This document shows positions 20,813 to 36,113 of a DNA stretch of 64,000 bases, piece after piece. Source of the DNA: an uncultured delta proteobacterium. GTDB taxonomy: Bacteria; Desulfobacterota; RBG-13-43-22. The notes beneath the pieces were generated by a model. That model was not told the DNA's origin. It did no database searches and worked only from the letters and a program-made list of their open reading frames with translations. The stretch is taken from positions 1,280,001 to 1,344,000 of the forward strand of contig CAWBOS010000012.1 of the NCBI GenBank assembly GCA_963790475.1, read 5' to 3'. Made by a program: the position numbers and the translations under genes. Position 1 is the first letter of the stretch. Each line of letters starts with the position of its first letter.

Positions 20813-21031
20813 CTAATCTCCCACCTCCGGCCTGTTGTCTATTAACTTTTTGTCTGCTTCTTCCCTTTCTTTCTGAGATTCGTTGATCAGGCACTGGGGT
20901 CGAAATTTGCAATATAGTTTGGGATCGCTGCAGGCCACTCCTTCCTCAAAGCAGGCCGGGCAGTAAGCGATCAGATGTTTCTGGCAAGGGAAGACCCCTT
21001 CCCGGTCCGGATGGTTTCGGCAGCTTGGCAT
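20813..21031 (-). CDS. Small Cys/His-rich (B-box-like) protein
   Basis: CxxHP...CxKH...CxxC...C...CKFRxxC. Confidence 0.6.
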   Translation of the reverse strand: MPSCRNHPDREGVFPCQKHLIAYCPACFEEGVACSDPKLYCKFRPQCLINESQKEREEADKKLIDNRPEVGD

Positions 21032-21111
21032 AATAAAAAGTCTTATACCATAACTTCGGGAAGAAACGAAAGGGATTCACGACTTTTTTCGCTTTTCTTT
21101 CTTTTTTCATT

Positions 21112-21140
21112 TTGACAAATCTCGAAAATCCTTATATATT
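21112..21140 (+). promoter_or_regulatory. Putative sigma70 promoter of polysaccharide locus
   Basis: TTGACA-17 bp-TATATT. Confidence 0.6.
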
Positions 21141-21234
21141 CATTTAGATAAATTAAATAGACCCAAAAGACCCAATACCCAGCTAAACCAGATAAACCAA
21201 ACGCTAAACAGGCCAGACAGAACTGATCAAAGCA

Positions 21235-21936
21235 ATGCTTTTGTCCGTCATTATTCCGGTTTTTAATGAGAAGGAGACCTTGGAGGGTTTGGTGGAAAAG
21301 GTTCGTTCGGTTGATCTTTCCTCCTTGAACATTACCATGGAGATCGTGGTCATCGATGACTGCTCCCAGGACGGTACCCTGGATGTGGCACGAAAGCTGG
21401 CCGAGGAGGGGAAGATCCGTTTACTAAGACATGATAAAAACCAGGGGAAGGGAGCAGCCCTACAAACCGGGTTTCAGGGGGCGCAGGGAGAAATCGTTTT
21501 GATCCAGGATGCCGACCTGGAATACGACCCTGAAGAATATCCTAAATTGTTAAGGCCCATCATAGAAGGGAAGGCCGACGTTGTTTATGGCTCCCGCTTC
21601 ATGGGAGGAGAGCCCCATCGGGTCCTCTATTTTTGGCATTATGTCGGAAACAGATTCCTGACTCTTCTATCCAGCATGATGACCAACCTTAATTTATCCG
21701 ATATGGAGACCTGTTATAAGGTCTTCCGAACAGAGATGCTCAGGTCCATCCATTTGAAGGAAAAAAGGTTTGGTTTCGAACCTGAAGTCACGGCCCGGAT
21801 CGCCCGGTTGGGGTGCCGAATTTACGAGGTTGGTATTTCCTATACCGGACGGACCTATAAAGAGGGGAAAAAAATCAACTGGAAAGACGGTGTCCGAGCT
21901 ATGTGGTGTATCATTAAGTATGCGGTAGTTAAATGA
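21235..21936 (+). CDS. Glycosyltransferase family 2
   Basis: IIPVFNE, DDCSQDGT, QDADLEYDP. Confidence 0.93.
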   Translation: MLLSVIIPVFNEKETLEGLVEKVRSVDLSSLNITMEIVVIDDCSQDGTLDVARKLAEEGKIRLLRHDKNQGKGAALQTGFQGAQGEIVLIQDADLEYDPEEYPKLLRPIIEGKADVVYGSRFMGGEPHRVLYFWHYVGNRFLTLLSSMMTNLNLSDMETCYKVFRTEMLRSIHLKEKRFGFEPEVTARIARLGCRIYEVGISYTGRTYKEGKKINWKDGVRAMWCIIKYAVVK

Positions 21937-21976
21937 TTACAACCGGTTGGCTTTTTGAGATTTAAAAAATTTATTC

Positions 21977-22173
21977 GACAGGATTTACAGGATTGCTTTC
22001 TTTTGTGCCTTTCGTCCTGTCTGCATGCGAGCACGCAGACAGGCATGGGGATGAAAGGGACAAACCGAATCGTCCTGCGGACAGAAGCATTCATTTCCGC
22101 TGGAAGCGGACCGAGGTTGCTCAGGGCCTAACAGGGCCTGAGCAATGAACATGTAAATCCCGTTAATCCTGTC
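21977..22173. mobile_element. Gene-less derivative of the GxxExxY element, with nested palindrome
   Basis: gacaggatttacaggatt ... aatcccgttaatcctgtc ends; left cctttc/gaaagg and right ttgctcag/ctgagcaa hairpins as in 25485-25997. Confidence 0.7.
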
Positions 22174-22200
22174 AGACAAAAACACTTTCTTTAGGTTTTT

Positions 22201-23193
22201 ATGAAACATGTCTTAGTCACCGGGGGAGCCGGATACATCGGGAGTGTGGTCTGCCAAACCCTTCTCGAAAGAGGGCACTCGATTATTGTTCTGGATAGTC
22301 TGGAGGAAGGACATCGACAGGCTCTGCCAACGAATAGCATTTTTTTTCAGGGTGATCTTGGGGATGAGCCCTTTTTAAAAACTATTTTTGATTCCTATCC
22401 CATTGGGGCCGTGCTGCATTTGGCTGCTTATTGTCTGGTGGGGGAGTCGGTCCAGGATCCGGAAAAATACTATGGAAATAATGTGTCCAAGGGGCTTGTT
22501 CTCTTGAAGGCCATGAGGGGTTTCGGGGTTAATAAGATAGTCTTTTCCTCTTCGGCAGCGGTCTATGGGGAACCCATCTCCACTCCGATTGCTGAAACTC
22601 ACCCGACTCAGCCGGTCAATCCCTATGGTCATTCCAAACTCATTTTTGAACAGGTCCTGGATTGGTACCAAAAGGCCTATGGGTTGAAGTATGTCACCTT
22701 TCGCTATTTCAATGCCGCCGGAGCAATAGATCGGCTGGGAGAGGACCATCATCCGGAAACCCACTTGATCCCCCTGATCCTTGGGCCCCTCTTGGCTGGG
22801 GAAAGGGCTGCAGAACCGCTAACGGTTTTCGGAACGGATTACCCGACGCCGGACGGAAGCTGTCTGCGGGATTATATCCATATCCGGGACCTGGCCTTGG
22901 CCCATGTCCTGGCCCTGGAAAGATTGGATAAACTCCAGGAGAGAATTTTTAATCTGGGAAACGGGATGGGTTTTTCGGTCTTGGAGGTTATTGAGGCGGC
23001 CGGCCAGGTCAGCGGCCGGAAAATCCCTTATCGCCATGGAGAACGCCGTCCGGGAGATCCGGCTGTGCTGGTGGCTTCTTCCATTCGGGCCCGGAAGGTC
23101 CTGGGCTGGGAACCCTGCTATCCGGAGTTAAAAGAAATTATCGCATCCGCCTGGGACTGGCATCAAAAATTTCCCAGAGGGTATGAACAATAA
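22201..23193 (+). CDS. galE: UDP-glucose 4-epimerase
   Basis: GGAGYIGS, YGHSK, RYFNAAGA, RDYIH. Confidence 0.95.
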   Translation: MKHVLVTGGAGYIGSVVCQTLLERGHSIIVLDSLEEGHRQALPTNSIFFQGDLGDEPFLKTIFDSYPIGAVLHLAAYCLVGESVQDPEKYYGNNVSKGLVLLKAMRGFGVNKIVFSSSAAVYGEPISTPIAETHPTQPVNPYGHSKLIFEQVLDWYQKAYGLKYVTFRYFNAAGAIDRLGEDHHPETHLIPLILGPLLAGERAAEPLTVFGTDYPTPDGSCLRDYIHIRDLALAHVLALERLDKLQERIFNLGNGMGFSVLEVIEAAGQVSGRKIPYRHGERRPGDPAVLVASSIRARKVLGWEPCYPELKEIIASAWDWHQKFPRGYEQ

Positions 23194-23202
23194 CCGGCTA
23201 CT

Positions 23203-23244
23203 GGCAGGATTAACAAGATTTATGTGAATCCTGTTAATCCTGTC
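23203..23244. repeat. Minimal hairpin of the GxxExxY terminal repeats
   Basis: ggcaggattaacaagatt-tatgtg-aatcctgttaatcctgtc. Confidence 0.8.
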
Positions 23245-23306
23245 GGACCATTTTTTTTTGAAGCTAAACTGTTACGATTTTTCTAAGATATCCTGTTACA
23301 TAAGAG

Positions 23307-23819
23307 ATGATGATGAGCAATATTGAAACCTGGTATACGGTTTATACCAAAAGCCGCTGTGAACAAAAGGTTTTTCAGACTTTGACCGACAAATCCATTG
23401 TCGCCTTTTTACCCAAAATCGAAACCTTAAGCCGCCGCAAAGACAGAAGGAAAAAGATTTGGCTTCCCCTTTTCCCCGGATATGTTTTTTTTCGAATTCC
23501 CTGGGAACTGAAATTATATTGGGAAGTATTAAAGACCGACGGTGTTGTAAAGGTCCTGACCATGGGAGGGGCACCGGCCCCGGTGCCGGAGGTGGAGATT
23601 CAGTCGGTTAAAATTGCGGTGGAAAGCCTGTTGCCGCTTTTTCCGCATCCCTTTGTCAGGGAGGGAGACCGGGTGATTATTGAAGCAGGGCCTTTAAAAG
23701 GCGCCCAGGGAATTTTTATATCCCGGGAGGGAAAAATGGGAAAATTCGTGGTTGGGGTTGATTTGCTCAACCGGGCCGTGGCTGTGGAGATTGAACCGGA
23801 ATTTATCCGGAAATTGTAA
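23307..23819 (+). CDS. UpxY/RfaH-type NusG paralogue (antiterminator)
   Basis: WYTVYTKSRCE, PLFPGYVF, KOW GDRV.I..GPLKG. Confidence 0.85.
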   Translation: MMMSNIETWYTVYTKSRCEQKVFQTLTDKSIVAFLPKIETLSRRKDRRKKIWLPLFPGYVFFRIPWELKLYWEVLKTDGVVKVLTMGGAPAPVPEVEIQSVKIAVESLLPLFPHPFVREGDRVIIEAGPLKGAQGIFISREGKMGKFVVGVDLLNRAVAVEIEPEFIRKL

Positions 23820-25478
23820 TTGTCAGAAAAAAAGGAGGTTCAAAAGTCTATGGATTATTCAATTGCCCCCACGGGAGAACGGTTTTCCCTGCCCAATCCT
23901 GAGGATGCAGAGGCGGAAAACAAACGCCTCCGAACCCTGGCGGATGAACAACGCCGGCAAGGGAGGGAGATTGTGGTGGTGATGGGGGTCGGCTTTGTGG
24001 GCGCGGTGATGGCCGGTGTGGTCGCCGATTCCGTAGATGCCCAGGGCCGGTCCGCAAAATTCGTCATCGGCATGCAGCGGCCCAGTTCCCGGTCTTTTTG
24101 GAAGATCCCTTTTATCAATCGGGGGATCTGTCCGGTCACGGCAGAAGACCCGGAGGTCGCCCCTTTGATCCGCCGCTGCGTGCTGGAAAAAAAGACCATG
24201 ACCGCCACCTTTTCCATCGAGGCCTTGTCCCTGGCCGATGCCGTTGTGGTAGATGTTCAATGCGATTTCATCAAGGAAGACCTGGGCAATGTCAAAAGCG
24301 GCAATGCCGACATTCAGGCCCTGGAAGAAAGTTTTAAGATTATCGGGCACAAAATTTCTCCCAAGACCCTGGTCCTGATCGAAACCACCGTTCCTCCCGG
24401 AACGACCGAATACATCGCCTACCCTTATATTAAAAAGGCCTTTGAGGAGCGGGGCATATCGGAGGAACCTCTTTTGGCCCACAGCTTCGAACGGGTCATG
24501 CCGGGAAAGAACTATGTAGCCTCAATCCGGAATTTCTGGCGGGTCTGCAGCGGCATCAACACCGAGGCCCGGGACCGGGTAGTCCGTTTTCTGTCCGAGG
24601 TCATAGAAGTGGAGAAATACCCTTTGACGGTCTTGGACCGGCCAATGGAAAGTGAGACCTGCAAGATCATTGAAAACAGCTTTCGGGCGACTATGCTGGC
24701 CTATATGCATGAATGGAGCTTATTTGCCGAACGCAACGGCGTGGATCTTCTCAAGGTCATCGAGGCCATCAAGGTCCGGCCGACCCACAGTAATATCATG
24801 TTTCCAGGACCGGGAATCGGCGGCTATTGCCTGCCCAAAGACGGGGGGCTGGGCCTCTGGTCCTATAAGCACCTGATGGGATTTCAGGACGATATCTTTC
24901 AGGTCACCCCTTTGGCCATCAATATCAATGATACCCGGGCCCTTCATGCCGCCCAATTAGTAAGGGACGCCCTGCGCAACCAAAACCGGATTGTGGCTTC
25001 TTCCCTGATTGCCGTTTTGGGGATTTCATACCGGGAGGATGTGGGCGATACCCGCTACAGCGGTTCAGAACTTTTGGTCAGAAAATTAAGCGAAATGGGG
25101 TCCGAGGTGCGGGTCCATGATCCTTATGTGGACCACTGGTGGGAAATGGAAAAGCAGGACGATTATCCCATTCACAATAGTTGGGCGCGATTTTTCCGGA
25201 ACCAGGAAGGGTTGAAAAATCTGCAAGTCAACAAAGAAATTCCTGAAACCCTGCGGGGGGCGGATGCCGTCGTCCTGGCTGTGCGTCATTCGGCCTATAT
25301 GGACCTGGCCCCGAAGCAGGTGGTGGAGTGGATCGGCAAGCCTGCGGCGGTGGTGGATTGTTTTGGAATTCTGAATGACGACCAGATCCGAAAATATTTT
25401 GAGCTGGGATGCGAGGTGAAAGGTTCCGGACGAGGCCATATCAATCGTATTAAAAGGGAAGTATTGGGGAAAAAATAA
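23820..25478 (+). CDS. Nucleotide-sugar dehydrogenase
   Basis: GVGFVG, ETTVPPGTT, GPGIGGYCLPKD. Confidence 0.9.
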   Translation: MSEKKEVQKSMDYSIAPTGERFSLPNPEDAEAENKRLRTLADEQRRQGREIVVVMGVGFVGAVMAGVVADSVDAQGRSAKFVIGMQRPSSRSFWKIPFINRGICPVTAEDPEVAPLIRRCVLEKKTMTATFSIEALSLADAVVVDVQCDFIKEDLGNVKSGNADIQALEESFKIIGHKISPKTLVLIETTVPPGTTEYIAYPYIKKAFEERGISEEPLLAHSFERVMPGKNYVASIRNFWRVCSGINTEARDRVVRFLSEVIEVEKYPLTVLDRPMESETCKIIENSFRATMLAYMHEWSLFAERNGVDLLKVIEAIKVRPTHSNIMFPGPGIGGYCLPKDGGLGLWSYKHLMGFQDDIFQVTPLAININDTRALHAAQLVRDALRNQNRIVASSLIAVLGISYREDVGDTRYSGSELLVRKLSEMGSEVRVHDPYVDHWWEMEKQDDYPIHNSWARFFRNQEGLKNLQVNKEIPETLRGADAVVLAVRHSAYMDLAPKQVVEWIGKPAAVVDCFGILNDDQIRKYFELGCEVKGSGRGHINRIKREVLGKK

Positions 25479-25484
25479 GGGTTA

Positions 25485-25997
25485 GACAGGATTAACAGGA
25501 TTGACTTGATATTTTTTACCCTTTCCGGATGAAAGGGCAAAATGGTCCTCCACAATGAAACACGAAGATATAACCAAAAATAACATAGGAGCATCTTACA
25601 GGGTATTCAATACGCTCGGCTTTGGTTTTTTAGAAAGTGTTTATAGAAAGTCGATGGGGATTGAATTGATGAAAAATAATTTGAAATTTGAAGAAGAGAA
25701 ACCATTAAAAGTTTTTTATGAAGACCATGTAATTGGAGATTTTTACCTAGATCTTTTGATAGAGGATGAAATTGTGGTTGAATTAAAATCGATTCAGAAT
25801 TTACTTAAAGAACATGAGGTCCAACTTGTAAATTATCTGAATGGGTTGAAAAAGGAAGTCGGTCTATTAATCAATTTTAGCCCCCATGGCGTCGAAGTTA
25901 AACGTAAATATCGACAACCGTCGCCGAAGGCAGATTGAATTTGCTCAGTTTCTTCTGGAAACTGAGCAAAAATCCCTTTAATCCTGCAAATCCTGTC
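25485..25997. mobile_element. Putative GxxExxY-encoding element bounded by inverted 9-bp tandem repeats
   Basis: gacaggattaacaggatt ... aatcctgcaaatcctgtc; hairpins at 25514-25542 and 25940-25970. Confidence 0.65.
25555..25938 (+). CDS. GxxExxY protein (PD-(D/E)xK nuclease fold)
   Basis: GFLESVY motif, D...VELK, QLVNYL, GLLINF; AT-rich relative to neighbours. Confidence 0.92.
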   Translation: MKHEDITKNNIGASYRVFNTLGFGFLESVYRKSMGIELMKNNLKFEEEKPLKVFYEDHVIGDFYLDLLIEDEIVVELKSIQNLLKEHEVQLVNYLNGLKKEVGLLINFSPHGVEVKRKYRQPSPKAD

Positions 25998-26017
25998 TGA
26001 AAAAAAGTGGATTTTTT

Positions 26018-27112
26018 ATGAACCAATCCAAAGTAGCTGTCTTAAAAACCGAACCAAAGACTGTCTTTGAGGATATCGATCGTCTGTGCGAACTGGCCGA
26101 TTTTAAAAAACATCTCGACCCGACCCGTCCGGTAATCCTCAAGGACAATATTTCCTGGCATTTTCCCTTCCTGAGTGCCAATACCACCCCCTGGCAGTTG
26201 GAAGGAATGATCAAGACCCTACTGGAAAATGGGTACCGGGACCTGGTTGCGGTCCATAATAATACGGTGGTCACCAATCCTTATAAGGGAGGCCGGTTGA
26301 ATAAACTGACCCCTATCTATGAGAAATACCAAATCCCGGAACTCTATAATTTCAGAAAAGATCAGATCCGCTGGGAAGTCTATCGGCCTAAAGCCCGAAT
26401 GAGAGTCCTGAACCAAATCTTTCCTCAAGGGATACGTATCCCTGAATTCTTTATCGGGAAAAACATCGTACACCTCCCTACTGTCAAAACCCATATTTAT
26501 ACTTCCACCACCGGGGCTATGAAGAATGCCTTCGGGGGCTTATTGAACACCAAACGGCATTACACCCACAGCGTGATCCATGAAACCCTGGTGGATCTCT
26601 TGGCCATCCAGAAGGAAATCCATTCCGGGATCTTCGCCTTGATGGATGGGACCGTTTGCGGCTCCGGCCCGGGGCCGAGGACCATGACCCCGGTAGAAAA
26701 GAATTATCTGTTGGCGTCCGGAGACAGCGTCGCCATCGATGCCGTAGCCGCCCATATGATGGGTTTTGATCCCTTAACTCTCCCCTTTATTCGTCTGGCC
26801 TGTGAAGACGATCTGGGTCAGGGACAATTTAAAGACATCGAAATCCTTGGGGAAGATGTATCCAAAGAAAACTTCGGATTTCAGGTGGGAGATAACTTTG
26901 CCAGTAACATAGGTGATTTCTTATGGTTCAGTCCCTTCCGCAGGTACCAAAAGTTTTTTTTTCATACCCCAATGGTCAACCTCTTTATTTTTGCTTCCTT
27001 CTTTTACCATGATTTTATCTGGTGGCCTTTTAGAGGCACCAGGATTATGAAAAATTTTAAAAAGGAGTCCCGGTGGGGGAGGTATTTTTCAACCTATCCC
27101 GAGCTGCGGTAA
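26018..27112 (+). CDS. DUF362-domain protein
   Basis: LPTVKTH...TGAMKN.FG, D.VAIDAVAA..MG. Confidence 0.8.
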   Translation: MNQSKVAVLKTEPKTVFEDIDRLCELADFKKHLDPTRPVILKDNISWHFPFLSANTTPWQLEGMIKTLLENGYRDLVAVHNNTVVTNPYKGGRLNKLTPIYEKYQIPELYNFRKDQIRWEVYRPKARMRVLNQIFPQGIRIPEFFIGKNIVHLPTVKTHIYTSTTGAMKNAFGGLLNTKRHYTHSVIHETLVDLLAIQKEIHSGIFALMDGTVCGSGPGPRTMTPVEKNYLLASGDSVAIDAVAAHMMGFDPLTLPFIRLACEDDLGQGQFKDIEILGEDVSKENFGFQVGDNFASNIGDFLWFSPFRRYQKFFFHTPMVNLFIFASFFYHDFIWWPFRGTRIMKNFKKESRWGRYFSTYPELR

Positions 27113-27118
27113 TCAATC

Positions 27119-28297
27119 ATGGACTTTGTCGATTTAAAATACCAGCAACAACGAATTAAAGATAAACTCGAATCCAGGATTCAAGCCGTTCTGGCTCATG
27201 GCCAATATATCATGGGCCCCGAAGTCAAAGAACTGGAAGAACGACTGGCTGAGTACGTAGGCGTAAACCAGGCCGTAAGCTGCGCTTCGGGTACCGATGC
27301 CCTGCTCCTGGCCCTGATGGCTTTTAATCTTGGACCGGGCGAGGCGATATTTACCACCCCGTTTACCTTTGTGGCCACGGCCGAGGTGATCAGCCTCCTG
27401 GGGGCTACCCCCATCTTTGTGGATATAGATCCCCAGACTTTTAACCTGGATCCCAACAAACTTGAATTGGCCATCAGGGCCTTAAAGTCGAACGATCCGA
27501 CCATCCATCCGCTCCCCCGTTTTGACTCGCCCCTCGTCACTCGTTACTCGTCGCTTCGCCCGAAGGGCCTGATCTCCGTGGATCTGTTCGGCCTGCCGGC
27601 TGATTTTGACCGCATCAATACCATTGCCCGGGAACACCTCCTTTATGTTATCGAAGATGCGGCCCAATCTTTCGGGGCTGAATATCACAACAGGAGAGCC
27701 TGTGCCTTATCCGAGGTTGCCTGTACTTCTTTCTTCCCGTCTAAACCACTGGGGGCTTACGGGGACGGCGGCATGTGTTTTACTCAGGATGACCACCTGG
27801 CCGATGTAATGCGATCTATTAGGATTCATGGGCAAGGTGTTAATAAATATGAGAATGTAAGAATTGGATTTAACGGGCGGTTGGATACCCTTCAAGCGGC
27901 CGTATTGCTGGCCAAATTTGAAATCTTTTCGGAGGAGATCGAATTAAGGAATCAAGTGGCGAAACGGTACACCGATCTTCTCACCCGCTACTCGTCACTC
28001 GTCACTCCTTCTATTCCTGGAGAGATGAAGAGCGCCTGGGCCCAGTACTCTGTTCTATCCAAGAATTCAACTGAGCGGCAAAATTTTATTCAAAAACTTA
28101 AAGGGGCTTCCATTCCCACGGCCATCTATTATCCAAAACCCTTGCATCTTCAAACTGCTTTTACCTTTCTGGGATATAAGGAAGGTCAATTCCCAGTCAG
28201 CGAGGATTGTGCCCGGCGAATTTTCAGCTTGCCCATGCATCCTTATTTAAAGCTGGAAGATCAGGAGAGAATAGTAAGTATTCTCAGCCAGGTGTAA
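27119..28297 (+). CDS. DegT/DnrJ/EryC1/StrS aminotransferase
   Basis: EDAAQSFG, SFFPSKPLGAYGDGG, SLPMHPYL. Confidence 0.93.
   Translation: MDFVDLKYQQQRIKDKLESRIQAVLAHGQYIMGPEVKELEERLAEYVGVNQAVSCASGTDALLLALMAFNLGPGEAIFTTPFTFVATAEVISLLGATPIFVDIDPQTFNLDPNKLELAIRALKSNDPTIHPLPRFDSPLVTRYSSLRPKGLISVDLFGLPADFDRINTIAREHLLYVIEDAAQSFGAEYHNRRACALSEVACTSFFPSKPLGAYGDGGMCFTQDDHLADVMRSIRIHGQGVNKYENVRIGFNGRLDTLQAAVLLAKFEIFSEEIELRNQVAKRYTDLLTRYSSLVTPSIPGEMKSAWAQYSVLSKNSTERQNFIQKLKGASIPTAIYYPKPLHLQTAFTFLGYKEGQFPVSEDCARRIFSLPMHPYLKLEDQERIVSILSQV
27525..27552 (+). repeat. In-frame heptamer tandem repeat inside DegT
   Basis: actcgcc-cctcgtc-actcgtt-actcgtc. Confidence 0.7.
27983..28010 (+). repeat. Second in-frame heptamer tandem repeat inside DegT
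   Basis: acccgct-actcgtc-actcgtc-actcctt. Confidence 0.7.
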
Positions 28298-28313
28298 GGA
28301 TAATCTTAACACT

Positions 28314-29615
28314 CTACTTAGCCTTTTTGAAAACCCGTTTGAAAATCACATCCACATTTTTTAACATATGACCGAGGTTGAATAGTCCAGTCAGTTCCCT
28401 GGGGGTCAGCCATTGTTTTATCCTCGGGTCCTGCTTCAGCAACTCTTCAAAACTTTTCTCCCCGGCCCAGATCTTCATGGCATTTTCCTGCACGACCGGG
28501 TAAGCTTCTTCACGAGTTATTCCCTTTCTGGTCAAGGCCAACAGGATCCCTTCAGAAAAAATTAATCCTTTTGTTATCATAACATTTTTCTTCATGTTAT
28601 TTGGATAAATAATTAAATTACTTATAATATTTGTTAGTCTATTCAGCATATAATCCAGGAGGGTTGTGGCATCAGGACCGATCACCCGTTCCACGGAGGA
28701 GTGACTGATATCCCTTTCATGCCACAGGGCTTGGTTTTCCATGGCGGCCAGGGCATAACCACGGACCAGCCTGGACAAACCGGTCAGATTCTCCGAGGCA
28801 ATTGGATTTCTCTTATGGGGCATAGCCGAAGAACCTTTTTGTCCTTTGGAAAAGTATTCTTCCGCCTCCAAGACCTCCGTCCGTTGAAGGTGTCTGATTT
28901 CCACAGACATCTTTTCAATGGAACCGGCAATAACGGCCAAGGTGCAAAAATACTCGGCGTAGCGGTCCCGCTGAATGATCTGGCTGGAAGCGGGCGCGGG
29001 TTTGAGTCCCAAGCTGCGGCAGACATAGGCCTCAACCCGGGGGGAGATATGGGCGAAGGTCCCCACCGCCCCGGATATTTTGCCGACGGCAATGGTCTCC
29101 CGGGCCTGAATTAGACGGCGGAGATTACGGCCGGCCTCATCATACCAGAGGGCCATTTTCAACCCAAAGGTAATGGGTTCGGCATGAATACCGTGAGAAC
29201 GGCCGATCATGACTGTTTTTTTATGGGCCAGGGCCTGGTCCTTTAATACCGATTGCAGGACCTTCATATCCTCTATCAGGACCCCGGCGGCCTCCTTGAG
29301 CAGGACGGACATGGAGGTGTCCAATACATCGGATGAAGTCAGCCCCAGATGGATGTGGCGGCTGGCCGGACCCACATGTTCGGCGACATTGGTCAGGAAA
29401 GCGATGACATCGTGTTTGGTGATCTGCTCCAATTCTTCGATCTGCTCCACTGAAAAGCGGGCTTTCTTTTTGATTTGCTCCAGGTCCCGGGGAGGGATAT
29501 GACCCAGTCGGGAAAGGGCTTCACAAGCCAGAATTTCCACCTCAAGCCATTTCTGGTATTTATTCTGCTGACTCCAGATGTTGGCCATAACAGGACGGGT
29601 GTAACGAGGGATCAT
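28314..29615 (-). CDS. purB: Adenylosuccinate lyase
   Basis: MIPRY, GRSHGIHAEP, GSSAMPHKRNP. Confidence 0.96.
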   Translation of the reverse strand: MIPRYTRPVMANIWSQQNKYQKWLEVEILACEALSRLGHIPPRDLEQIKKKARFSVEQIEELEQITKHDVIAFLTNVAEHVGPASRHIHLGLTSSDVLDTSMSVLLKEAAGVLIEDMKVLQSVLKDQALAHKKTVMIGRSHGIHAEPITFGLKMALWYDEAGRNLRRLIQARETIAVGKISGAVGTFAHISPRVEAYVCRSLGLKPAPASSQIIQRDRYAEYFCTLAVIAGSIEKMSVEIRHLQRTEVLEAEEYFSKGQKGSSAMPHKRNPIASENLTGLSRLVRGYALAAMENQALWHERDISHSSVERVIGPDATTLLDYMLNRLTNIISNLIIYPNNMKKNVMITKGLIFSEGILLALTRKGITREEAYPVVQENAMKIWAGEKSFEELLKQDPRIKQWLTPRELTGLFNLGHMLKNVDVIFKRVFKKAK

Positions 29616-29630
29616 GAAAATCTCCATTGA

Positions 29631-29686
29631 AGGTATAAGGTATAAGGTATAAGGTTCAGGGTTCAGGGTTCAGGGTTCAGGGTTCC
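29631..29686. repeat. Heptamer tandem array (8 units)
   Basis: aggtata x3, aggttca, gggttca x3, gggttcc. Confidence 0.85.
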
Positions 29687-29854
29687 GAAGAGTTATTAAA
29701 CTGAATTGGTACTTGCCTGTCAATGAAAAATTGATTATCTTTGCTTAGAAAGGGTCCAAGGGGTCTAGGAGTCGAGGGTTCATGTGTTTCGGCTTCCGAG
29801 CTTTTATCTTGAAACCTTGATCCCTTGATCCCTTGAATCCTTTGTGATTTTTTT

Positions 29855-32800
29855 ATGGACGATAAGTTTTGGAATGAAGAGGTTGAGAGACTGAGCCGGA
29901 CCGGTCCCGGTCTCCAGACTGTGATTCAAGAAATCCTGGCCGGCCGTCTCCCTTTCCGGGTTGCCGGGCTGCAGGGATCGTCCCCGGCCTATTTTCTTCA
30001 TCAGACCTGGACCCGGGTCCGAAGACCGATGCTGGTGGTCTGTGCCGATCCGGAAGAGGCCCAAAACCTTTTTAAGGATCTGCTCTTTTTTGCCGGGCGG
30101 GACCCCGAAGAAATTCAATTTTTTTTACCGTCCCCCATTCTCTATTTCCCGGTTTATGAAACACCGGACTTTCGGGAATATGCCCCGCAAACGGATACCG
30201 TGGCCCAGCGACTGGCCTGCCTCTATTCTTTGCTCACCCGCCCCGGACCGATGCTCCTGATTACCTCGATTCAGGCCCTTCATTCGGCGGTCATGCCCAG
30301 GGAATTACTTTCAAGTCAGGTGGATTATCTGGTCCGCAAAGAAGAAACCGCCAGAGAGGAACTCCTGGCGCAGTTAGTCCGGTGGGGCTATTTAAGGACC
30401 CCGCTGGTCGAAGGGGTTGGGGACCTAAGTGTCCGAGGCGGGATCCTGGATATATTCCCTCCCCTCCACAGCCGTCCGGTCCGGGTCGAATTTTTCGGGG
30501 ACCAAGTAGATTCCATCCGGGAATTCAATCCTGCCACCCAGCGGTCGGTTCTGGACCTGGAGGAGTTGGTCCTTCTCCCGGTCAGCGAAATCCTTTGGGA
30601 CCCGGAAAGAATACACCTGGCCGGAGTTAGACTGGAGCAGGCCTTGAGTAAAGGGGCCATTGCTGAAAACGAAGCCTCCTGGCTTAAACATCGCCTGGAT
30701 CAAGGCCTCCCTTTTGAAGGGGGAGAACGTTGGTTGTCCTGGTTCTATGAAATACCGGGTTGTTTAAAAGAGTATCTGCCCCACGATTTTCTCTTAGTCT
30801 GGAATGACCCTTTGTCGTTGCAGCGGGGCATGCCGGCCGAAGCCCCCGATCCTCAAAAAAAGTTTTGGGACGGCTGGGAAGATGTTCCGGCTATTTCCCT
30901 GGAGAATTTGCCGGTTGAAACACCGGGGATGATAACCGGCCCTCTCTGGTCTTTATCGACCAAGGAAAATCAGGAGATCAGCCATATTATCCGGGAACAG
31001 TCTTCGTCCAAGGAGGGACTTCAAAAACTGGCGGCTTTCCTTTCCGCCTGGAAAGAACTGGAACAGGAAATCTGGATCATTGTTTCTCAAGATGCTCAAG
31101 CCAGACGACTGCGGGACATCCTCTCCTTCTATCAGATTGATGTCTCTTATTTCCCCGAACAGAAGCACCTGTTCGGCGGGCAAAACCCCGGTGTGCGTAT
31201 CCTGACCGGCCGTCTTTCGGGGGGGTTTCGAATGAAATCCCCATCCCTGATTTTCCTGACCGAGAAAGAGATCTTCGAGCCTAAAAAGGAGATCCGGAAA
31301 AAAGACCGGAAAGAGGATTTAGAGGCCTATATTACCTCGTTGGATGATCTGAAGGCCGATGACTTCATAGTCCATAAGGATCATGGTATCGGCTTGTACC
31401 GGGGCCTGCAATTTTTTAAATTGGACGGCTGGGAGGGCGAATTCCTATTTATTGAATATGCCGAAGGGGACAAGCTCTATATCCCGGTGGACCGGCTTCT
31501 GGGGATCCATAAATTTATAGGTCTGGAGGGACAGGTCCCTTCTCTGGACCGGTTGGGCGGGGCCGGATGGAAGAAGTCCAAAGCCAAAGTCAAAAAGGCC
31601 GTGGAGAAAATCGCCCAGGAATTGGTGGACCTCTATGCCCACCGGGCGGTCAGCAAGGGCTTTGCCTTTTCCGGCCGCGATCAGATGTTCAAGGAATTTG
31701 AGGCCGCCTTTCCCTATGAAGAGACCCCGGATCAACTGAGGGTAATCGAAGAAGTGCTGGGCGATATGGAGTCGGAAAAGCCCATGGATCGCTTAGTGTG
31801 CGGTGATGTGGGATACGGCAAAACCGAGGTGGCCCTGCGGGCCGCTTTTCGGGCGGTGCTGGATGGAAAACAGGTGGCGGTTTTGGTTCCGACCACGGTT
31901 TTGGCTGAACAGCATTATCAAACCATGTCCCGGCGTTTTGGGGGCTATCCGGTTGAAGTCCGGATCTTGAGCCGGTTCAAAAGCCCCAAGGAACAGAAAC
32001 AAACCCTGGCGGATCTGAAGGCCGGGAAAGTGGATATCGTGATCGGGACTCATCGATTGCTTCAAAAGGATATCCAATTCAGGGATCTGGGACTGATTAT
32101 CATTGATGAGGAGCACCGCTTTGGCGTTTCCCATAAAGAGCGGCTCAAGACCCTGAGGACCCAGGTGGATTGCCTGACCCTGACCGCCACCCCCATTCCC
32201 CGAACCCTGCAGCTGTCTCTGACCGGGATCCGGGATTTGAGCACCATAGAGACCCCGCCGGAGGACCGTCAATCCATCCGGACCCATATCATCCCTTTTG
32301 ATGAAGCCAAAATCGTTGAAGCAGTCCGGCGTGAACTTCAACGGGGCGGGCAGGTCTTTTTTGTCCATAACCGGGTCCATAATATTCAGTCCATGGCCTA
32401 TTTTTTGAAAAAGATTTTACCCGAGGTGCGGATCGGCGTCGGACATGGACAGTTGCCGGAAAGGGAATTGGAAAAGGTGATGCTCCAGTTTGTCCGCCGG
32501 GAATTGGATCTCCTGGTCTGTACGACGATAATTGAATCCGGGCTGGACATCCCTACGGCCAACACCATTATCCTCAATCAAGCCGACCGGTTTGGACTGG
32601 CCCAGATGTATCAGTTGCGGGGCCGGGTAGGGCGTTCACGGGAAAGGGCCTATGCCTACCTGGTTGTTTCCGGGGAGAGTACCCTGACCCGGGATGCCCA
32701 GAAACGTTTGAAGGTCCTGATGGATTTCAGCGAACTGGGGGCCGGGTTCAAGATCGCCCTTCACGATCTGCGGATACGCGGGGCCGGACATCTATTGGGC

Positions 32801-33346
32801 ACCAGCCAGTCGGGGCATGTAGCCGCTGTAGGCTATGAGATGTATATTCAGATGCTGGAACAGGCCATTAACGAATTAAAAGGGGGCGGTCCGGTCCCGG
32901 AGTGGGAGCCCGAAATTCGGCTTCGGGTCCCGGCCTTCATACCGGAAAAATACGTGCCGGACCCCGGACATCGGTTATCTTTGTACAAACGTTTAACTTC
33001 TTTGAAGACCGAAGATGAATTGGTCGATATGCGGGAGGAAATGGAAGACCGCTTCGGGTCGATTCCGGAAGCTTTAACCAATCTGTTACAGGTCTTGAAT
33101 ATCAAACAGAAGATGAGAACAATAGGAATAGAACGGATCGAGATCCTGGAAAACGATCTGGTTTTTTCTTTTTACCCTGGAGGAGCCTGGAAACCGGAGA
33201 GGCTGGTGGCCCTGGTCCAGCAAAACCCCCGAAGTTATCGTTTTAAAGGAGAAGGGAAGCTATACGTAACCTATAAAAGTGAAAAGACTGAATTGGAAAC
33301 CACTGGGGGGCTGCTGGAAGAGTTTGCTCTGCGGTTAATCGGGTAA
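29855..33346 (+). CDS. mfd: Transcription-repair coupling factor
   Basis: [38 protein letters not shown] domain. Confidence 0.97.
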
Positions 33347-33351
33347 TGATT

Positions 33352-33586
33352 GCTCATAGCTCATGGCTGATAGCTCATAGGTAATGACTTCAAGATAAAA
33401 ACTGAAAGTCTAACATCACAATGATAATCTCATAAAAGGCCTCCAAAACCTGTCTTACCCCGAAGGCTGCAAACTTCAAGCCGATTTTCATCGAAATAGC
33501 AAGAAAATAAATTTTTGACGACCTTTTGCAAAACCATCAAATTTGATAGTCATTTTTCTATGAGTTATCAGCTATGGGCTGTCAGC
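33352..33586. repeat. Nested inverted-repeat element (heptamer outer arms, 20-bp inner arms)
   Basis: gctcata-gctcatg-gctgata-gctcata / ctatgagttatcagctatgggctgtcagc; inner 33422-33441 / 33520-33539. Confidence 0.7.
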
Positions 33587-33595
33587 TGTCCCGTC

Positions 33596-33623
33596 TTGAC
33601 AACTTCAAATCCATGATTATATT
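33596..33623 (+). promoter_or_regulatory. Putative sigma70 promoter of hsp20 pair
   Basis: TTGACA-16 bp-TATATT. Confidence 0.5.
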
Positions 33624-33653
33624 TTTCCCAAAAATATTACAGGTAAGGAGGGG

Positions 33654-34121
33654 ATGACGATGACTCTATGGAGATGGGGGTCGCCGAATACCTTTGGAAA
33701 CACCTTTCAGGAAGTGGAAAGACTGCAAAATGAAATGAATCGACTTTGGGGGATGGTATCGGGTACACCGGCCAGCACCGAGAGGGCGCGGATTTTTCCG
33801 CCGGTGGTGGTCAGTGAGGATAGCGACTATTTGTATGTGAGAGCCGAACTTCCCGGAGTGGAAACGAGCCATTTGGATCTTTCAGTAGTTAATGATCAAC
33901 TCATTTTAAGGGGTGAACGCAAGACCGTAGAAGAAGGGGAAAAGGTTAATTGTCACCGTAGGGAAAGAGAAGAAGGTATCTTCCGACGGGTAATTACCCT
34001 ACCCTCCAGGGTGAATACCGAAAAGGTGGAAGCCCGAACCAAGAACGGGATATTAACCATTAAATTGGCCAAGGCCGAGGAGGTCAAACCCCGACCGATT
34101 CAGATCCAGGTGGGGCAGTAA
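33654..34121 (+). CDS. Hsp20/alpha-crystallin small heat-shock protein
   Basis: AELPGV, RER..G.F.R, NGILTI.L.K, C-terminal IxI. Confidence 0.93.
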   Translation: MTMTLWRWGSPNTFGNTFQEVERLQNEMNRLWGMVSGTPASTERARIFPPVVVSEDSDYLYVRAELPGVETSHLDLSVVNDQLILRGERKTVEEGEKVNCHRREREEGIFRRVITLPSRVNTEKVEARTKNGILTIKLAKAEEVKPRPIQIQVGQ

Positions 34122-34134
34122 GTAATTTAACGAG

Positions 34135-34545
34135 GTGAAGACTATGACGGAAAAAGAAATGCAGTTCAGAGAAAAGCAGGAATTAAGGGGGTCGGGGGAA
34201 CCGACCAAAACCGGTCTGACTTTTATCCCGGCCGTCGATATTTTTGAAACGGAAGAGGCCCTGACCTTGATGGCTGAGATGCCGGGGGTCGACCAGGAGG
34301 GGTTACATCTTGATCTTAAAGACAATCAGATATCTATCCTGGGGGAAGTGGGAGAATCTCCCGGTCCTCAGGAAAGGACCCTGCTCAAAGAGTTTGAGAC
34401 AGGAAGATTCTTTCGGCAATTTAATTTGTCGGAGGTCATTGATCAGAATAAAATCAGCGCCCACCTCAAGAACGGGGTTCTGAAGGTGGTTTTGCCTAAA
34501 ATCGAAAAAGCCAAACCACGAAAGATTGAGGTTACGGTGGACTAA
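34135..34545 (+). CDS. Hsp20/alpha-crystallin small heat-shock protein
   Basis: PAVDIFE, EMPGV, NGVLKV.LPK, KIEV. Confidence 0.93.
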   Translation: MKTMTEKEMQFREKQELRGSGEPTKTGLTFIPAVDIFETEEALTLMAEMPGVDQEGLHLDLKDNQISILGEVGESPGPQERTLLKEFETGRFFRQFNLSEVIDQNKISAHLKNGVLKVVLPKIEKAKPRKIEVTVD

Positions 34546-34556
34546 CGATGCATCTG

Positions 34557-34639
34557 GACAGGATTTAGAGGATAATTAACTTTCGCCCTTTCCGGAAGAA
34601 AAGGCAGACATAGATCCTAATGATCCTGTTAATCTTGTC
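34557..34639. mobile_element. Short gene-less derivative of the GxxExxY element
   Basis: gacaggatttagaggat ... atcctgttaatcttgtc enclosing gccctttccggaagaaaaggc, matching the left-arm hairpin ccctttccggatgaaagggc. Confidence 0.7.
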
Positions 34640-34641
34640 AC

Positions 34642-34878
34642 CTATTTTTTTGCAGGAGCGGGCTTGGGTGCCGAATTAGAAGGTGCCGGGCCCGCATTTT
34701 TTTTGAGGACCTGGCTTTTCAGATATTGCCTCATCTTCCGGTCGGCCTCAAAGATTTCTTCCGCATCCGGACCGGAGATATTATAAGAATAGCCTTTTTT
34801 ATTGTCATGGAAAAGCCTGATCTGGAGGGCGGTGGTCAGGACCAAAGTGATCAGAATAAAAGAGGACATGATTTTCAT
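34642..34878 (-). CDS. Small hypothetical exported/membrane protein
   Basis: 78-aa ORF with hydrophobic N-terminus and Pro/Ala/Lys tail. Confidence 0.5.
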   Translation of the reverse strand: MKIMSSFILITLVLTTALQIRLFHDNKKGYSYNISGPDAEEIFEADRKMRQYLKSQVLKKNAGPAPSNSAPKPAPAKK

Positions 34879-35018
34879 GCTTTTTGGACCTTTCTAAAAA
34901 AGGGTAAACTTAAAGGGTCAAGGTTCAAGGTGTACGTTAAAACGGATCAATAATCTATAGTCTCGGAAAAGATTGAAGGATAAGGATCGGATTTCGTATC
35001 TAACCGAAAACCTTAAAC

Positions 35019-36113
35019 CTATATTTTAAATCTTTCCCTGGCCCTAATACTCACCTCGGCCAATAAAGCCAGGAGCTGCCTGGCCGTCTGTTCGGAAAGG
35101 GTTCCCATTCCGCAGGCCGGAGTGAGCAGGGCCTGGGTGTATAACCGGCCTTGATCGATTCCTTGACTGATCAGGTTTTCAAAAAGGGCGGCCAATCGGT
35201 CCAGCAGGCCGGAGGCCGTTTCTTTTCCGGTGAAGCCAGTAGTCGGGACCAGGCCCCAAGCCACGGCCTTTCCTTTTTCCAGGAATTTTTTAATCTCCCG
35301 AGGATAAAGTATAAAAGAAGATCCAAAATTAAAGGCATCTAAATTGATGATATCCAGGTCCAGAGAAAGCAGCAAGGACCAATCGGTATTGCCGCAACAA
35401 TGAAGACCGATCAGAGTTCCGACCTGCTCCCGAATGTGTTGTATGGTTTCTCCTAAAATTTTTATGACTTCATCTTTAGACAAGGGGGTGAAGGCCGAAC
35501 CATAACCGGAAAGAGAGGGTTCATCCAAAAAGATGATTGATTTCCGGTGTAAGTCTTCAAACTTTTTTACCTGATAAACGGCCTGCAAGGCCAACCCCCT
35601 GACCACCGTATCCATCAATTCCGGATCATGAATCAGAAACCGGTCAGAGGACAGTTTGACACTCAAACCCAGGGTAATGGGGCCTACGATCTGCCCTTTG
35701 ATATAGCGGACCGTAGAAGGAAGAGAGGGCAGGATCTCCAACAGCCGGTAAAACCCTGAGGCAAATTCCGGAAGAAGTGAAAAGAAAGAAAAATCGGAGG
35801 CCAAAAATTTTTCATAAAAAAGTAATAGGGCATCCGCCCGGTTACAGTCCGGATCATAAGATAAACTTTTCTGCGCAAGATCGGGTTGAAGACAGGGCAG
35901 GGGGGGACTATATTGGAGGACCATATCCTCCCGTGGGTCTTTCTGAACCAACTGGGGCCAAAAAGGGATCAAAGATTCCTGTGACAGGATTTCCCGACAG
36001 GCCTGTTCTGGTAAAAGAAAAGGAACGCTGCCGATTCCTGTGGCGCTGAAGGGGGCCAGGTCTTTCCAAAGGGTGTTTTGAGTCATTGGTTTCTTTTCGG
36101 ACATGAAAGGCAA
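35019..36113 (-). CDS. Cobalamin-independent methionine synthase-like (MetE C-terminal/URO-D fold) protein
   Basis: TGIGSVP, KGQIVGPIT, DEP, HCCG, TPACG zinc ligands. Confidence 0.75.
   Translation of the reverse strand: MPFMSEKKPMTQNTLWKDLAPFSATGIGSVPFLLPEQACREILSQESLIPFWPQLVQKDPREDMVLQYSPPLPCLQPDLAQKSLSYDPDCNRADALLLFYEKFLASDFSFFSLLPEFASGFYRLLEILPSLPSTVRYIKGQIVGPITLGLSVKLSSDRFLIHDPELMDTVVRGLALQAVYQVKKFEDLHRKSIIFLDEPSLSGYGSAFTPLSKDEVIKILGETIQHIREQVGTLIGLHCCGNTDWSLLLSLDLDIINLDAFNFGSSFILYPREIKKFLEKGKAVAWGLVPTTGFTGKETASGLLDRLAALFENLISQGIDQGRLYTQALLTPACGMGTLSEQTARQLLALLAEVSIRARERFKI

Follow-up and report, generated by a model that had tools for sequence, protein, structure and literature searches.

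The window, by which we mean the whole stretch of 64,000 nucleotides that was analyzed, corresponds to positions 1280001-1344000 of contig C12 in its source assembly (G000; 6.34 Mb, 48.8% GC). At 25485-25997 it carries a 513-bp insert that consists of a left arm, hairpin A, an open reading frame (ORF) for a GxxExxY protein, hairpin B and a right arm. The left arm (25485-25502, + strand) is built from two ACAGGATT units phased at 9 bp, with one base before each (G before the first, A before the second), and the right arm (25980-25997, - strand) from two inverted units, the outer-but-one of which carries a G to C change. Hairpin A (+ strand) has a 7-bp GC-rich stem and a 5-nt loop in its core at 25519-25537, and weaker pairs extend it to ~25513-25543; hairpin B (25940-25970, + strand) has a 13-bp stem and a 5-nt loop. 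The gene itself (25555-25938, + strand) encodes 127 aa and has a GC content of 33.6% versus 47-52% in the flanking genes. A preliminary description of this DNA had reported an AT-rich 127-aa GxxExxY gene enclosed by inverted arms with a hairpin on either side, and all of these parts lie where it placed them.

No other inverted repeat in the window is as strong as the arm pair, and the arm 8-mer ACAGGATT occurs 11 times in it compared with 2.51 expected, a count that was reached in 0 of 100 shuffles. A second inverted repeat, 50180/50637, falls within the rpoN and hpf coding sequences and was taken as chance. In the predicted RNA fold (minimum free energy (MFE) and centroid; z -3.41) the arms close a stem round the entire ORF, with both hairpins formed as well. 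Each arm is a tandem of 9-bp units, which has no hairpin of its own and no GTAG/CGTC-type tag at its ends.

The element starts 6 nt past the stop codon of a gene of the UDP-glucose/GDP-mannose dehydrogenase family and ends 20 nt before a DUF362 gene, and all three genes are on the + strand. The surrounding cluster is of polysaccharide type (GT2, epimerase, UDP-glucose/GDP-mannose dehydrogenase family, DegT); the placement between two sugar-pathway genes given earlier thus holds for the cluster and not for the downstream neighbor, DUF362 being no recognizable sugar enzyme. No sigma-70-like site was seen on the + strand within the element, leaving the ORF with no promoter-like site of its own. 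Between 21000 and 36000 there is no rRNA match, the element sitting between two protein-coding genes, and no Rfam family apart from one sub-threshold miRNA match. Immediately upstream of the dehydrogenase gene, at 23307-23819, lies a gene for a 170-aa NusG-family paralogue, which we presume could be a specialized antiterminator of the RfaH/LoaP kind.

The ORF matches PF13366 (PDDEXK_3; E 1e-36, 126.3 bits against a cut-off of 22, profile positions 2-116 of 117) and TIGR04256 (E 1.3e-36, 125.5 bits against a cut-off of 35). PF13366 is its sole Pfam match; no known transposase class, PF05635 or PF01797 was matched. The protein contains G24-E27-Y30, D66, E76-x-K78, Q90 and Y94, and across 66 diverse homologues E27, Y30, E76 and K78 never vary, and conservation of D66, Q90 and Y94 is at least 90%. 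Its AF2 model (pLDDT 94.6) has the PD-(D/E)xK nuclease fold. The best Foldseek match of the model is the Cas4 protein SSO0001 (4ic1; E 8.7e-5, TM 0.59), and a structure search returned matches tied at Z 7-8, namely the restriction-endonuclease-like protein 3ijm (8.2), BpuSI (7.9) and the Cas4 structure 4ic1 (7.7), and also SwaI, with Hjc at Z ~6. Tandem two-domain GxxExxY fusions of 250-273 aa are among the closest cluster representatives (P0001, P0002, P0005-P0007 and others) and provide the one hint that the protein may dimerize. PF13366/GxxExxY is a large family (11,935 cluster representatives at E<=1e-3). A literature search returned no functional study of it, supplements aside, and the accessible text of the PD-(D/E)XK survey lists its function as 'Unknown' (PMC3424549). 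The family match and the fold search agree in this respect with the preliminary description, in which GxxExxY proteins were PD-(D/E)xK-fold proteins of unknown function.

Insertion, age and gene-less derivatives

The flanking genes were sought by DNA search of 40 relatives, and 12 loci were fetched. The orthologous junction is empty in G004, in which the stop codon of the upstream gene overlaps the start codon of the downstream gene, and in G006, in which an 11-nt spacer separates the two genes. G013 and G011 hold a gene-carrying element, with proteins 92% and 88% identical to the one in the window. Among the other congeners, G007 has the same arms round an unrelated structured repeat, G002 only a degenerate arm-loop-arm, G009 the left arm and half of hairpin A followed by a decayed four-helix-bundle ORF with its own arms, and G005 and G008 other hairpin families. 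A metagenome scan for the empty allele gave 0 matches. The spacer after the epimerase gene, which in the window is occupied by a small frame at 23204-23244, has undergone a similar turnover: G005 has a full 3-unit frame there, and G013 has no frame and one solo arm of another unit type. The same spacer in G009 (L012) contains, among hairpin repeats, a stretch resembling the 3' part of a tRNA (T-arm-like GGTTCAAGTCC...GCC).

Compared with its counterpart in G013 the element is 94.3% identical (98.6% across 25485-25554, the left arm region), versus 80-81% for the flanking genes. Third-codon identity is 91.4% in the gene versus 60.6% and 58.3% in the flanking genes, and the block of raised identity spans ~25380-26100 and so reaches ~100 nt into each of them. 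These junction and codon comparisons show the element to be a horizontally moving insertion that is much younger than its flanks. Empty orthologous sites, the finding of which the preliminary description had proposed as a check, thus exist, and vertical conservation of the gene at this locus, which would have spoken against a selfish element, fails on the empty and varied junctions and the high third-codon identity, though three congeners share the site.

When the two-unit arm was searched genome-wide with up to 3 mismatches, 142 occurrences were found in G000. Defining a frame as a forward/reverse pair within 1.5 kb gives 17 frames, one with the gene and 16 without. Thirteen of the 17 measure 139-197 bp and have the order arm, hairpin A, central hairpin, hairpin B, arm, and they occur in both orientations; in contexts with a single direction of genes, 7 gene-less copies are co-oriented and 3 anti-oriented, numbers too small to read. 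Three gene-less copies lie in the window. That at 21977-22173 (+ strand) has both arms, an extended hairpin A, the central hairpin and hairpin B, with an outer extension that reaches ~21949-22195, and as single-stranded DNA it folds at -52.6 kcal/mol (z -7.34). The copy at 23204-23244 (no strand assigned), detected by the arm search and in the window's inverted-repeat list, is a minimal frame of two arms 6 nt apart, and the copy at 34557-34639 (+ strand), detected by the arm search and alignment, is short and degenerate with arms and hairpin A only. The three gene-less relatives of the earlier account are therefore real, and its tally of four copies grows to 17 frames when the whole genome is covered.

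When aligned with the element, the gene-less copies match the sequence bordering its ORF, their left ~55 nt on one side and their right 81 nt on the other, and they are thus the element minus its gene. The right block, aligned against the copy at C12:1040957, covers 25921-26001 and takes in the last 18 nt of the ORF; these 18 nt together with the spacer (25921-25939, + strand) have their homologue in the central hairpin that gene-less copies contain. The position of hairpin A recurs in the gene-less copies, and compensatory stem variants are found in both hairpin A and hairpin B. Pairwise identity among gene-less copies is 65-85% (median 77%), and it is ~0.9 in arms and hairpin stems, the stem columns of hairpin A included, versus 0.3-0.6 in linkers and loops. 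This retention in old copies shows the structured parts to be under constraint. Together with the empty sites and the young age of the element, these alignments bear out the earlier proposal of an inserted unit with non-autonomous derivatives.

The copies also differ in detail. The loop of hairpin A contains an extra stem-loop of ~35 nt in the window copy (22010-22065), in the copy at C10:1607611 of G000 and in the gene-carrying copy of G011 (L009), so that gene-less and gene-carrying copies share variants; the idea that this insert is an independent repeat was rejected, both of its genome copies lying inside copies of the present family. In ~8 of 12 gene-less copies conservation continues beyond the unit arms for another ~45 nt of mutually inverted sequence, an extension that the gene-carrying copy lacks, and the units are thus subterminal in the gene-less lineage. 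A/T runs flank the arms in many copies. Nested insertions inside frames are present in G007, in G009 and in the G000 copy at C10:199773. At C10:628644 of G000 the outer left extension is joined, with next to nothing between, to the last 6 nt of a right arm and the outer right extension, which is either a near-complete internal deletion or the footprint of a frame. A metagenome scan for further copies of the 5' part of the element gave 0 matches.

Arms were further counted with at most one mismatch on both strands, and the counts were set against PF13366 matches in the same genomes. The cognate gene is present in G011 (263 arms; 88% identical), G013 (42 arms; 92% identical) and G000 (30 arms), and in G011 ~130 arm pairs stand against one cognate gene. 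G007 has 97 arms and PF13366 fragments only, and G006 has 70 arms and one intact PF13366 gene that is 41% identical and has another word. No PF13366 match was found in G003 (39 arms; genome 76% complete), G009 (29 arms; 93% complete), G002 (13 arms; 100% complete), G012 (9 arms) and G005 (7 arms), an absence not proven by draft metagenome-assembled genomes. G001 and G010, with 4 and 1 GxxExxY genes of other clades, have 0 arms. The share of exact arms is 19/30 in G000 and 139/263 in G011, both with the gene, and ranges from 2/13 to 48/97 in genomes without it; this weak trend among few and related genomes would fit a slow decay after loss of the gene.

The arm word, the protein clade and the host genes

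To cover other hosts, 80 loci encoding relatives of the protein were fetched from named genomes with a single-protein query, a sample biased toward this clade; Pelotomaculum propionicicum MGP and Desulforhabdus sp. TSK are among the carriers. Of these, 76 were usable (37-92% protein identity), and units were scored within 200-nt flanks. At 36 of the 76 loci there are at least two ACA[GAT]GAT units in forward orientation upstream and at least two reversed units downstream. When relatives from the congeners and the paralogues of G000 itself are included, the flanks contain three or more such units at 64 of 95 loci, and these loci are distributed over at least 15 named phyla. Compact copies in other phyla lack a separate frame, and their arms lie immediately next to the gene. 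Across phyla, and at protein identities of 42-92%, the arm word stays the same. That a non-coding word survives at ~45% protein identity in unrelated hosts, which a need to pair would not by itself ensure, carries more weight than the tree comparison below. In more distant clades other words are found (CGCAAAG/CACAGAG, CACGGAT/GCGGATT, CGCAGAT, CACGAAT). Mapped onto a quick protein tree, the unit class shows 15 changes, compared with a mean of 28.8 and a minimum of 25 in 300 label shuffles. As a further control, inverted-repeat scores of mismatched flanks reached at least 12 at 33 of 76 loci compared with 58 of 76 for the real flanks; this control is uninformative because arms are shared between loci.

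A second family of cassettes in the same genomes provides a comparison. In five congeners holding 29-263 ACAGGATT arms, none of 28 cassettes with a PF05635 gene has the ACAGGATT word, and 24 of the 28 have phased inverted arms of other words. G000 has 13 PF05635 matches, and 8 of the 10 examined lie between phased inverted arms, the word of 7-9 bp differing in every case; orthologous word-gene pairs of these cassettes recur in congeners. The nearest PF05635 copy is at C12:1347602-1347916, 3.6 kb beyond the window end, and within the window, at 34900-34945, AAGG-type phased units (GGTCAAGG, GTTCAAGG) with no adjoining gene resemble the arms of four-helix-bundle cassettes in G007 and G008. Taken together, the two surveys show that the arm word is tied to this GxxExxY clade, with relatives in at least 15 phyla, and is not shared with the four-helix-bundle cassettes.

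The position relative to host genes is also recurrent. With crude ORF calls, the upstream neighbor is co-oriented with the GxxExxY gene at 39 of 45 callable loci and the downstream neighbor at 37 of 51. Stop codons were surveyed at 40 loci that have units upstream as well as a long open frame on that side. This frame reaches the arm at 29 loci: at 8 the stop of the upstream gene consists of TA and the G with which the element begins, at 12 it is inside the element (at 10 of these no deeper than 17 nt, usually a TAA or TGA that spans the unit spacer, with outliers at +111 and +538), and at 9 it is no more than 15 nt upstream of it. Cassettes are thus found right where genes end, and in many cases the upstream gene takes its stop codon from the arm. 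The co-oriented upstream neighbors and the lack of a promoter-like site argue for expression of the cassette by read-through.

A proposed selfish cassette that may read its own arms

Combining these data, we favor, with confidence that is evenly balanced, a reading in which 25485-25997 is the gene-carrying copy of a selfish, horizontally spreading cassette of the REPIN/RAYT-like kind, the PD-(D/E)xK nuclease of which reads its own unit arrays. The cassette is inserted in an operon spacer in the sense orientation. We infer the binding and cutting of the arms and the route of copying as follows: (i) the GxxExxY protein, probably as a dimer or higher multimer, would bind the arrays of units at the two ends, whether these are present as duplex DNA or folded back into a stem, (ii) the nuclease would then cut at or near the unit arrays, and (iii) host repair or recombination would copy or move the cassette. 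Gene-less copies would be served in trans by the nuclease, and the long arm stem may also permit excision of the cassette from the host transcript.

Several observations weigh against this reading. We know of no lone PD-(D/E)xK nuclease that carries out transposition, and because the structural matches are tied, the fold searches on the model single out no subfamily among Cas4, restriction enzymes and Hjc. The gene-less copies are old, with no sign of current activity here, and in most of them the conserved outer sequence means that the unit arms are not the tips of the element. As in the preliminary description, no target-site duplication was seen at the 17 copies of G000; TA adjoins both ends in many compact copies and is not distinguishable from a palindromic tip, and the empty sites available for reading the ends are ~20% diverged. 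Frames persist in numbers where no cognate gene is detectable. Independence of frame abundance from the gene, anticipated earlier as a point against the idea, is accordingly found in part: frames are plentiful in G002, G003, G005, G007, G009 and G012, and the exact-arm share is weakly higher in genomes with the gene. The expectation that GxxExxY genes across genomes have such arms likewise holds for the units at 64 of 95 loci and for the simple layout only in part, since 40 of the 76 relatives' loci lack the forward...reverse arrangement; at most of these the units are otherwise arranged, and some GxxExxY genes adjoin a complete hairpin or sit between direct arms. The tree test, because kin share labels, shows shared descent of arms and gene and not co-evolution. 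Finally, the other five GxxExxY genes of G000 are not in ACAGGATT frames and have other units or lie in a direct-repeat array. In this array (G000:C11:162500-173500; L132) three near-identical GxxExxY genes follow each other ~2 kb apart on one strand, with direct, not inverted, phased repeats between genes. It is interleaved with a TumE-like ORF, a DUF5615/DUF433 pair and small ORFs of no known function, adjoins GDP-mannose dehydratase and epimerase genes, and has a layout resembling an integron-like cassette array.

Alternatively, the gene could be a homing-type selfish gene, with the nuclease cutting gene-less palindromic frames, repair copying the gene from an occupied frame or allele, and the frames spreading otherwise. 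The coding sequence replaces almost exactly the center of the gene-less unit, the raised identity to G013 that runs ~100 nt into both flanking genes resembles a co-conversion tract, and the minimal arm-loop-arm frames (23204-23244 and the orthologous site in G002) and the nested insertions in G007, G009 and C10:199773 would also be in line with this. We nevertheless think it unlikely, since it needs a second mechanism to spread the frames, only 1 of 17 frames is occupied here, and in at least 15 phyla the word travels with the clade, including compact copies in which the arms abut the gene with no separate frame. A role of the arms at the RNA level is in our view improbable as a full account. 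Here, as for 23S rRNA intervening sequences, RNase III would cut the arm stem and free a stable small mRNA while leaving the operon intact, and the job of the nuclease (repair, defense) would be unrelated. The long-range stem predicted round the ORF, the co-oriented upstream genes (39/45), the missing promoter-like site and the arm architecture shared by PF05635 genes (8/10 checked in G000), a family that the accessible part of PMC10053308 places in rRNA intervening sequences, would all fit; a stem kept only for pairing should drift by compensatory change, however, and across phyla the word stays the same at protein identities of 42-92%, and gene-less copies are found in both orientations (7 versus 3).

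A rather improbable alternative is that the frames are REP-like repeats, useful to the host as terminators or mRNA stabilizers or neutral, that are moved by an unrelated enzyme such as a Y1 transposase, with GxxExxY as a passenger. It would account for the abundance of frames in genomes that lack the gene and for the conservation of stems and arms in old copies; A/T runs lie beside the arms in many copies, and G000 has 20 PF01797 (Y1 transposase) matches, several in identical copies. These matches lie elsewhere and no link was seen between any Y1 gene and the frames, no Rfam family is present at 21000-36000, the word goes with a single GxxExxY clade whose hosts span at least 15 phyla, and it is absent from all 28 four-helix-bundle cassettes in the same genomes. 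That the gene is an ordinary, vertically inherited small gene with chance or terminator inverted repeats is hardly credible: its presence at the same site in three congeners would agree, and the shuffled word counts (0/100), the two empty orthologous sites and the third-codon identity of 91% against ~60% in the flanks all speak against it. A homing-type route, an RNA role of the arm stem and mobilization by another enzyme are not mutually exclusive.

More broadly, and more tentatively than for the element itself, we suggest that GxxExxY proteins could be the enzymes of new cross-phylum miniature mobile elements, in which a PD-(D/E)xK nuclease of ~120 aa, in place of any known transposase, would read arrays of a clade-specific 7-9-bp word at either end of its cassette and of the gene-less copies, and that together with the four-helix-bundle (Avd/IVS-protein) cassettes, similarly built from other words, they could form one 'self-addressed' hairpin super-family that includes rRNA intervening sequences; we would not yet lean on this proposal. 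Literature searches on PDDEXK proteins with inverted repeats and on intervening sequences (IVS) and four-helix-bundle proteins returned no description of such cassettes, supplements aside, and the pairing of gene and word with gene-less copies looks like an undescribed kind of selfish DNA. A large family with no assigned function thereby gains a testable hypothesis, in which every protein clade has a DNA word of its own as fixed partner. Should it prove to mobilize the cassette, the nuclease would represent a new class of enzyme for mobile DNA, and the cassettes would account for numerous structured repeats between genes in Desulfobacterota, Acidobacteriota, Planctomycetota, Chloroflexota and further phyla. 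The four-helix-bundle cassettes, being built on a parallel plan, provide a link to the unexplained origin of rRNA intervening sequences. For annotation, not least of metagenome-assembled genomes, it matters that these elements sit at gene ends and that the arm often supplies the stop codon.

Relation to known systems

Cas4 and AddB nucleases have a four-cysteine Fe-S cluster. The GxxExxY protein shares with Cas4/RecB-type and type II restriction nucleases the PD-(D/E)xK fold, as modeled, and the acidic/lysine triad with the Q..Y residues. Unlike the Cas4/RecB-type nucleases it has only 127 aa and 0 cysteines, and so no Cas4-type Fe-S cluster, and a sequence search of the PDB with it gave no match. 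Free-standing homing endonuclease genes include some of the PD-(D/E)xK type, and like these the present gene is a small nuclease gene younger than its flanks, with raised identity ~100 nt into both; it differs from them in occupying many unrelated sites across genomes and in having its own inverted arms and gene-less copies.

Among DNA elements, pairs of miniature inverted-repeat transposable elements (MITEs) and autonomous elements are well known, as are fold-back transposons with terminal repeats of short tandem units. The gene-less copies resemble MITEs in being the element minus its coding sequence and in sharing its inverted repeats, and the inverted ends are built of tandem sub-repeats as in fold-back transposons. 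The differences from MITEs and other terminal-inverted-repeat transposons are the lack here of a known transposase fold and of a detected target duplication, and neither MITEs nor fold-back elements match the conserved sequence beyond the unit arms in the gene-less lineage.

The 23S rRNA intervening sequences of Leptospira and Coxiella offer a second parallel. As in these, a small ORF lies within inverted arms that are predicted to form a long stem, and the unit is placed in a transcribed region in the sense orientation; moreover, phased inverted arms built to this design also enclose PF05635 genes in G000 and its congeners. Unlike them, the element is not in an rRNA gene and its protein has another fold, its ORF not being PF05635, and the arm words are not shared with the PF05635 cassettes (0/28). 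The ORF carried by 23S rRNA intervening sequences is an Avd-like four-helix-bundle PF05635 protein in the accessible text of PMC10053308.

The preliminary description had drawn a parallel to RAYT genes and REP repeats, and with REPIN/RAYT systems as set out in the accessible parts of PMC3116915 and PMC3337134 this parallel extends to the layout and not to the enzyme class or the tagged palindrome. The enzyme here is a PD-(D/E)xK nuclease, whereas RAYT is an HUH Y1 transposase (PF01797). The repeat here is a tandem 9-bp word array with separate hairpins, whereas REP is a 20-40-bp tagged palindrome, described as short and with a GTAG/CGTC tag in the available text of PMC3733652. The gene here is AT-rich, young and horizontally exchanged, whereas RAYTs are described, in the part of 10.1101/2021.07.10.451892 that is accessible, as vertically kept. 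In both systems, an enzyme gene in one or few copies is bracketed by inverted repeat copies, gene-less doublets far outnumber the gene (here 17 frames, one of them with the gene), and the type of repeat goes with the clade of the enzyme.

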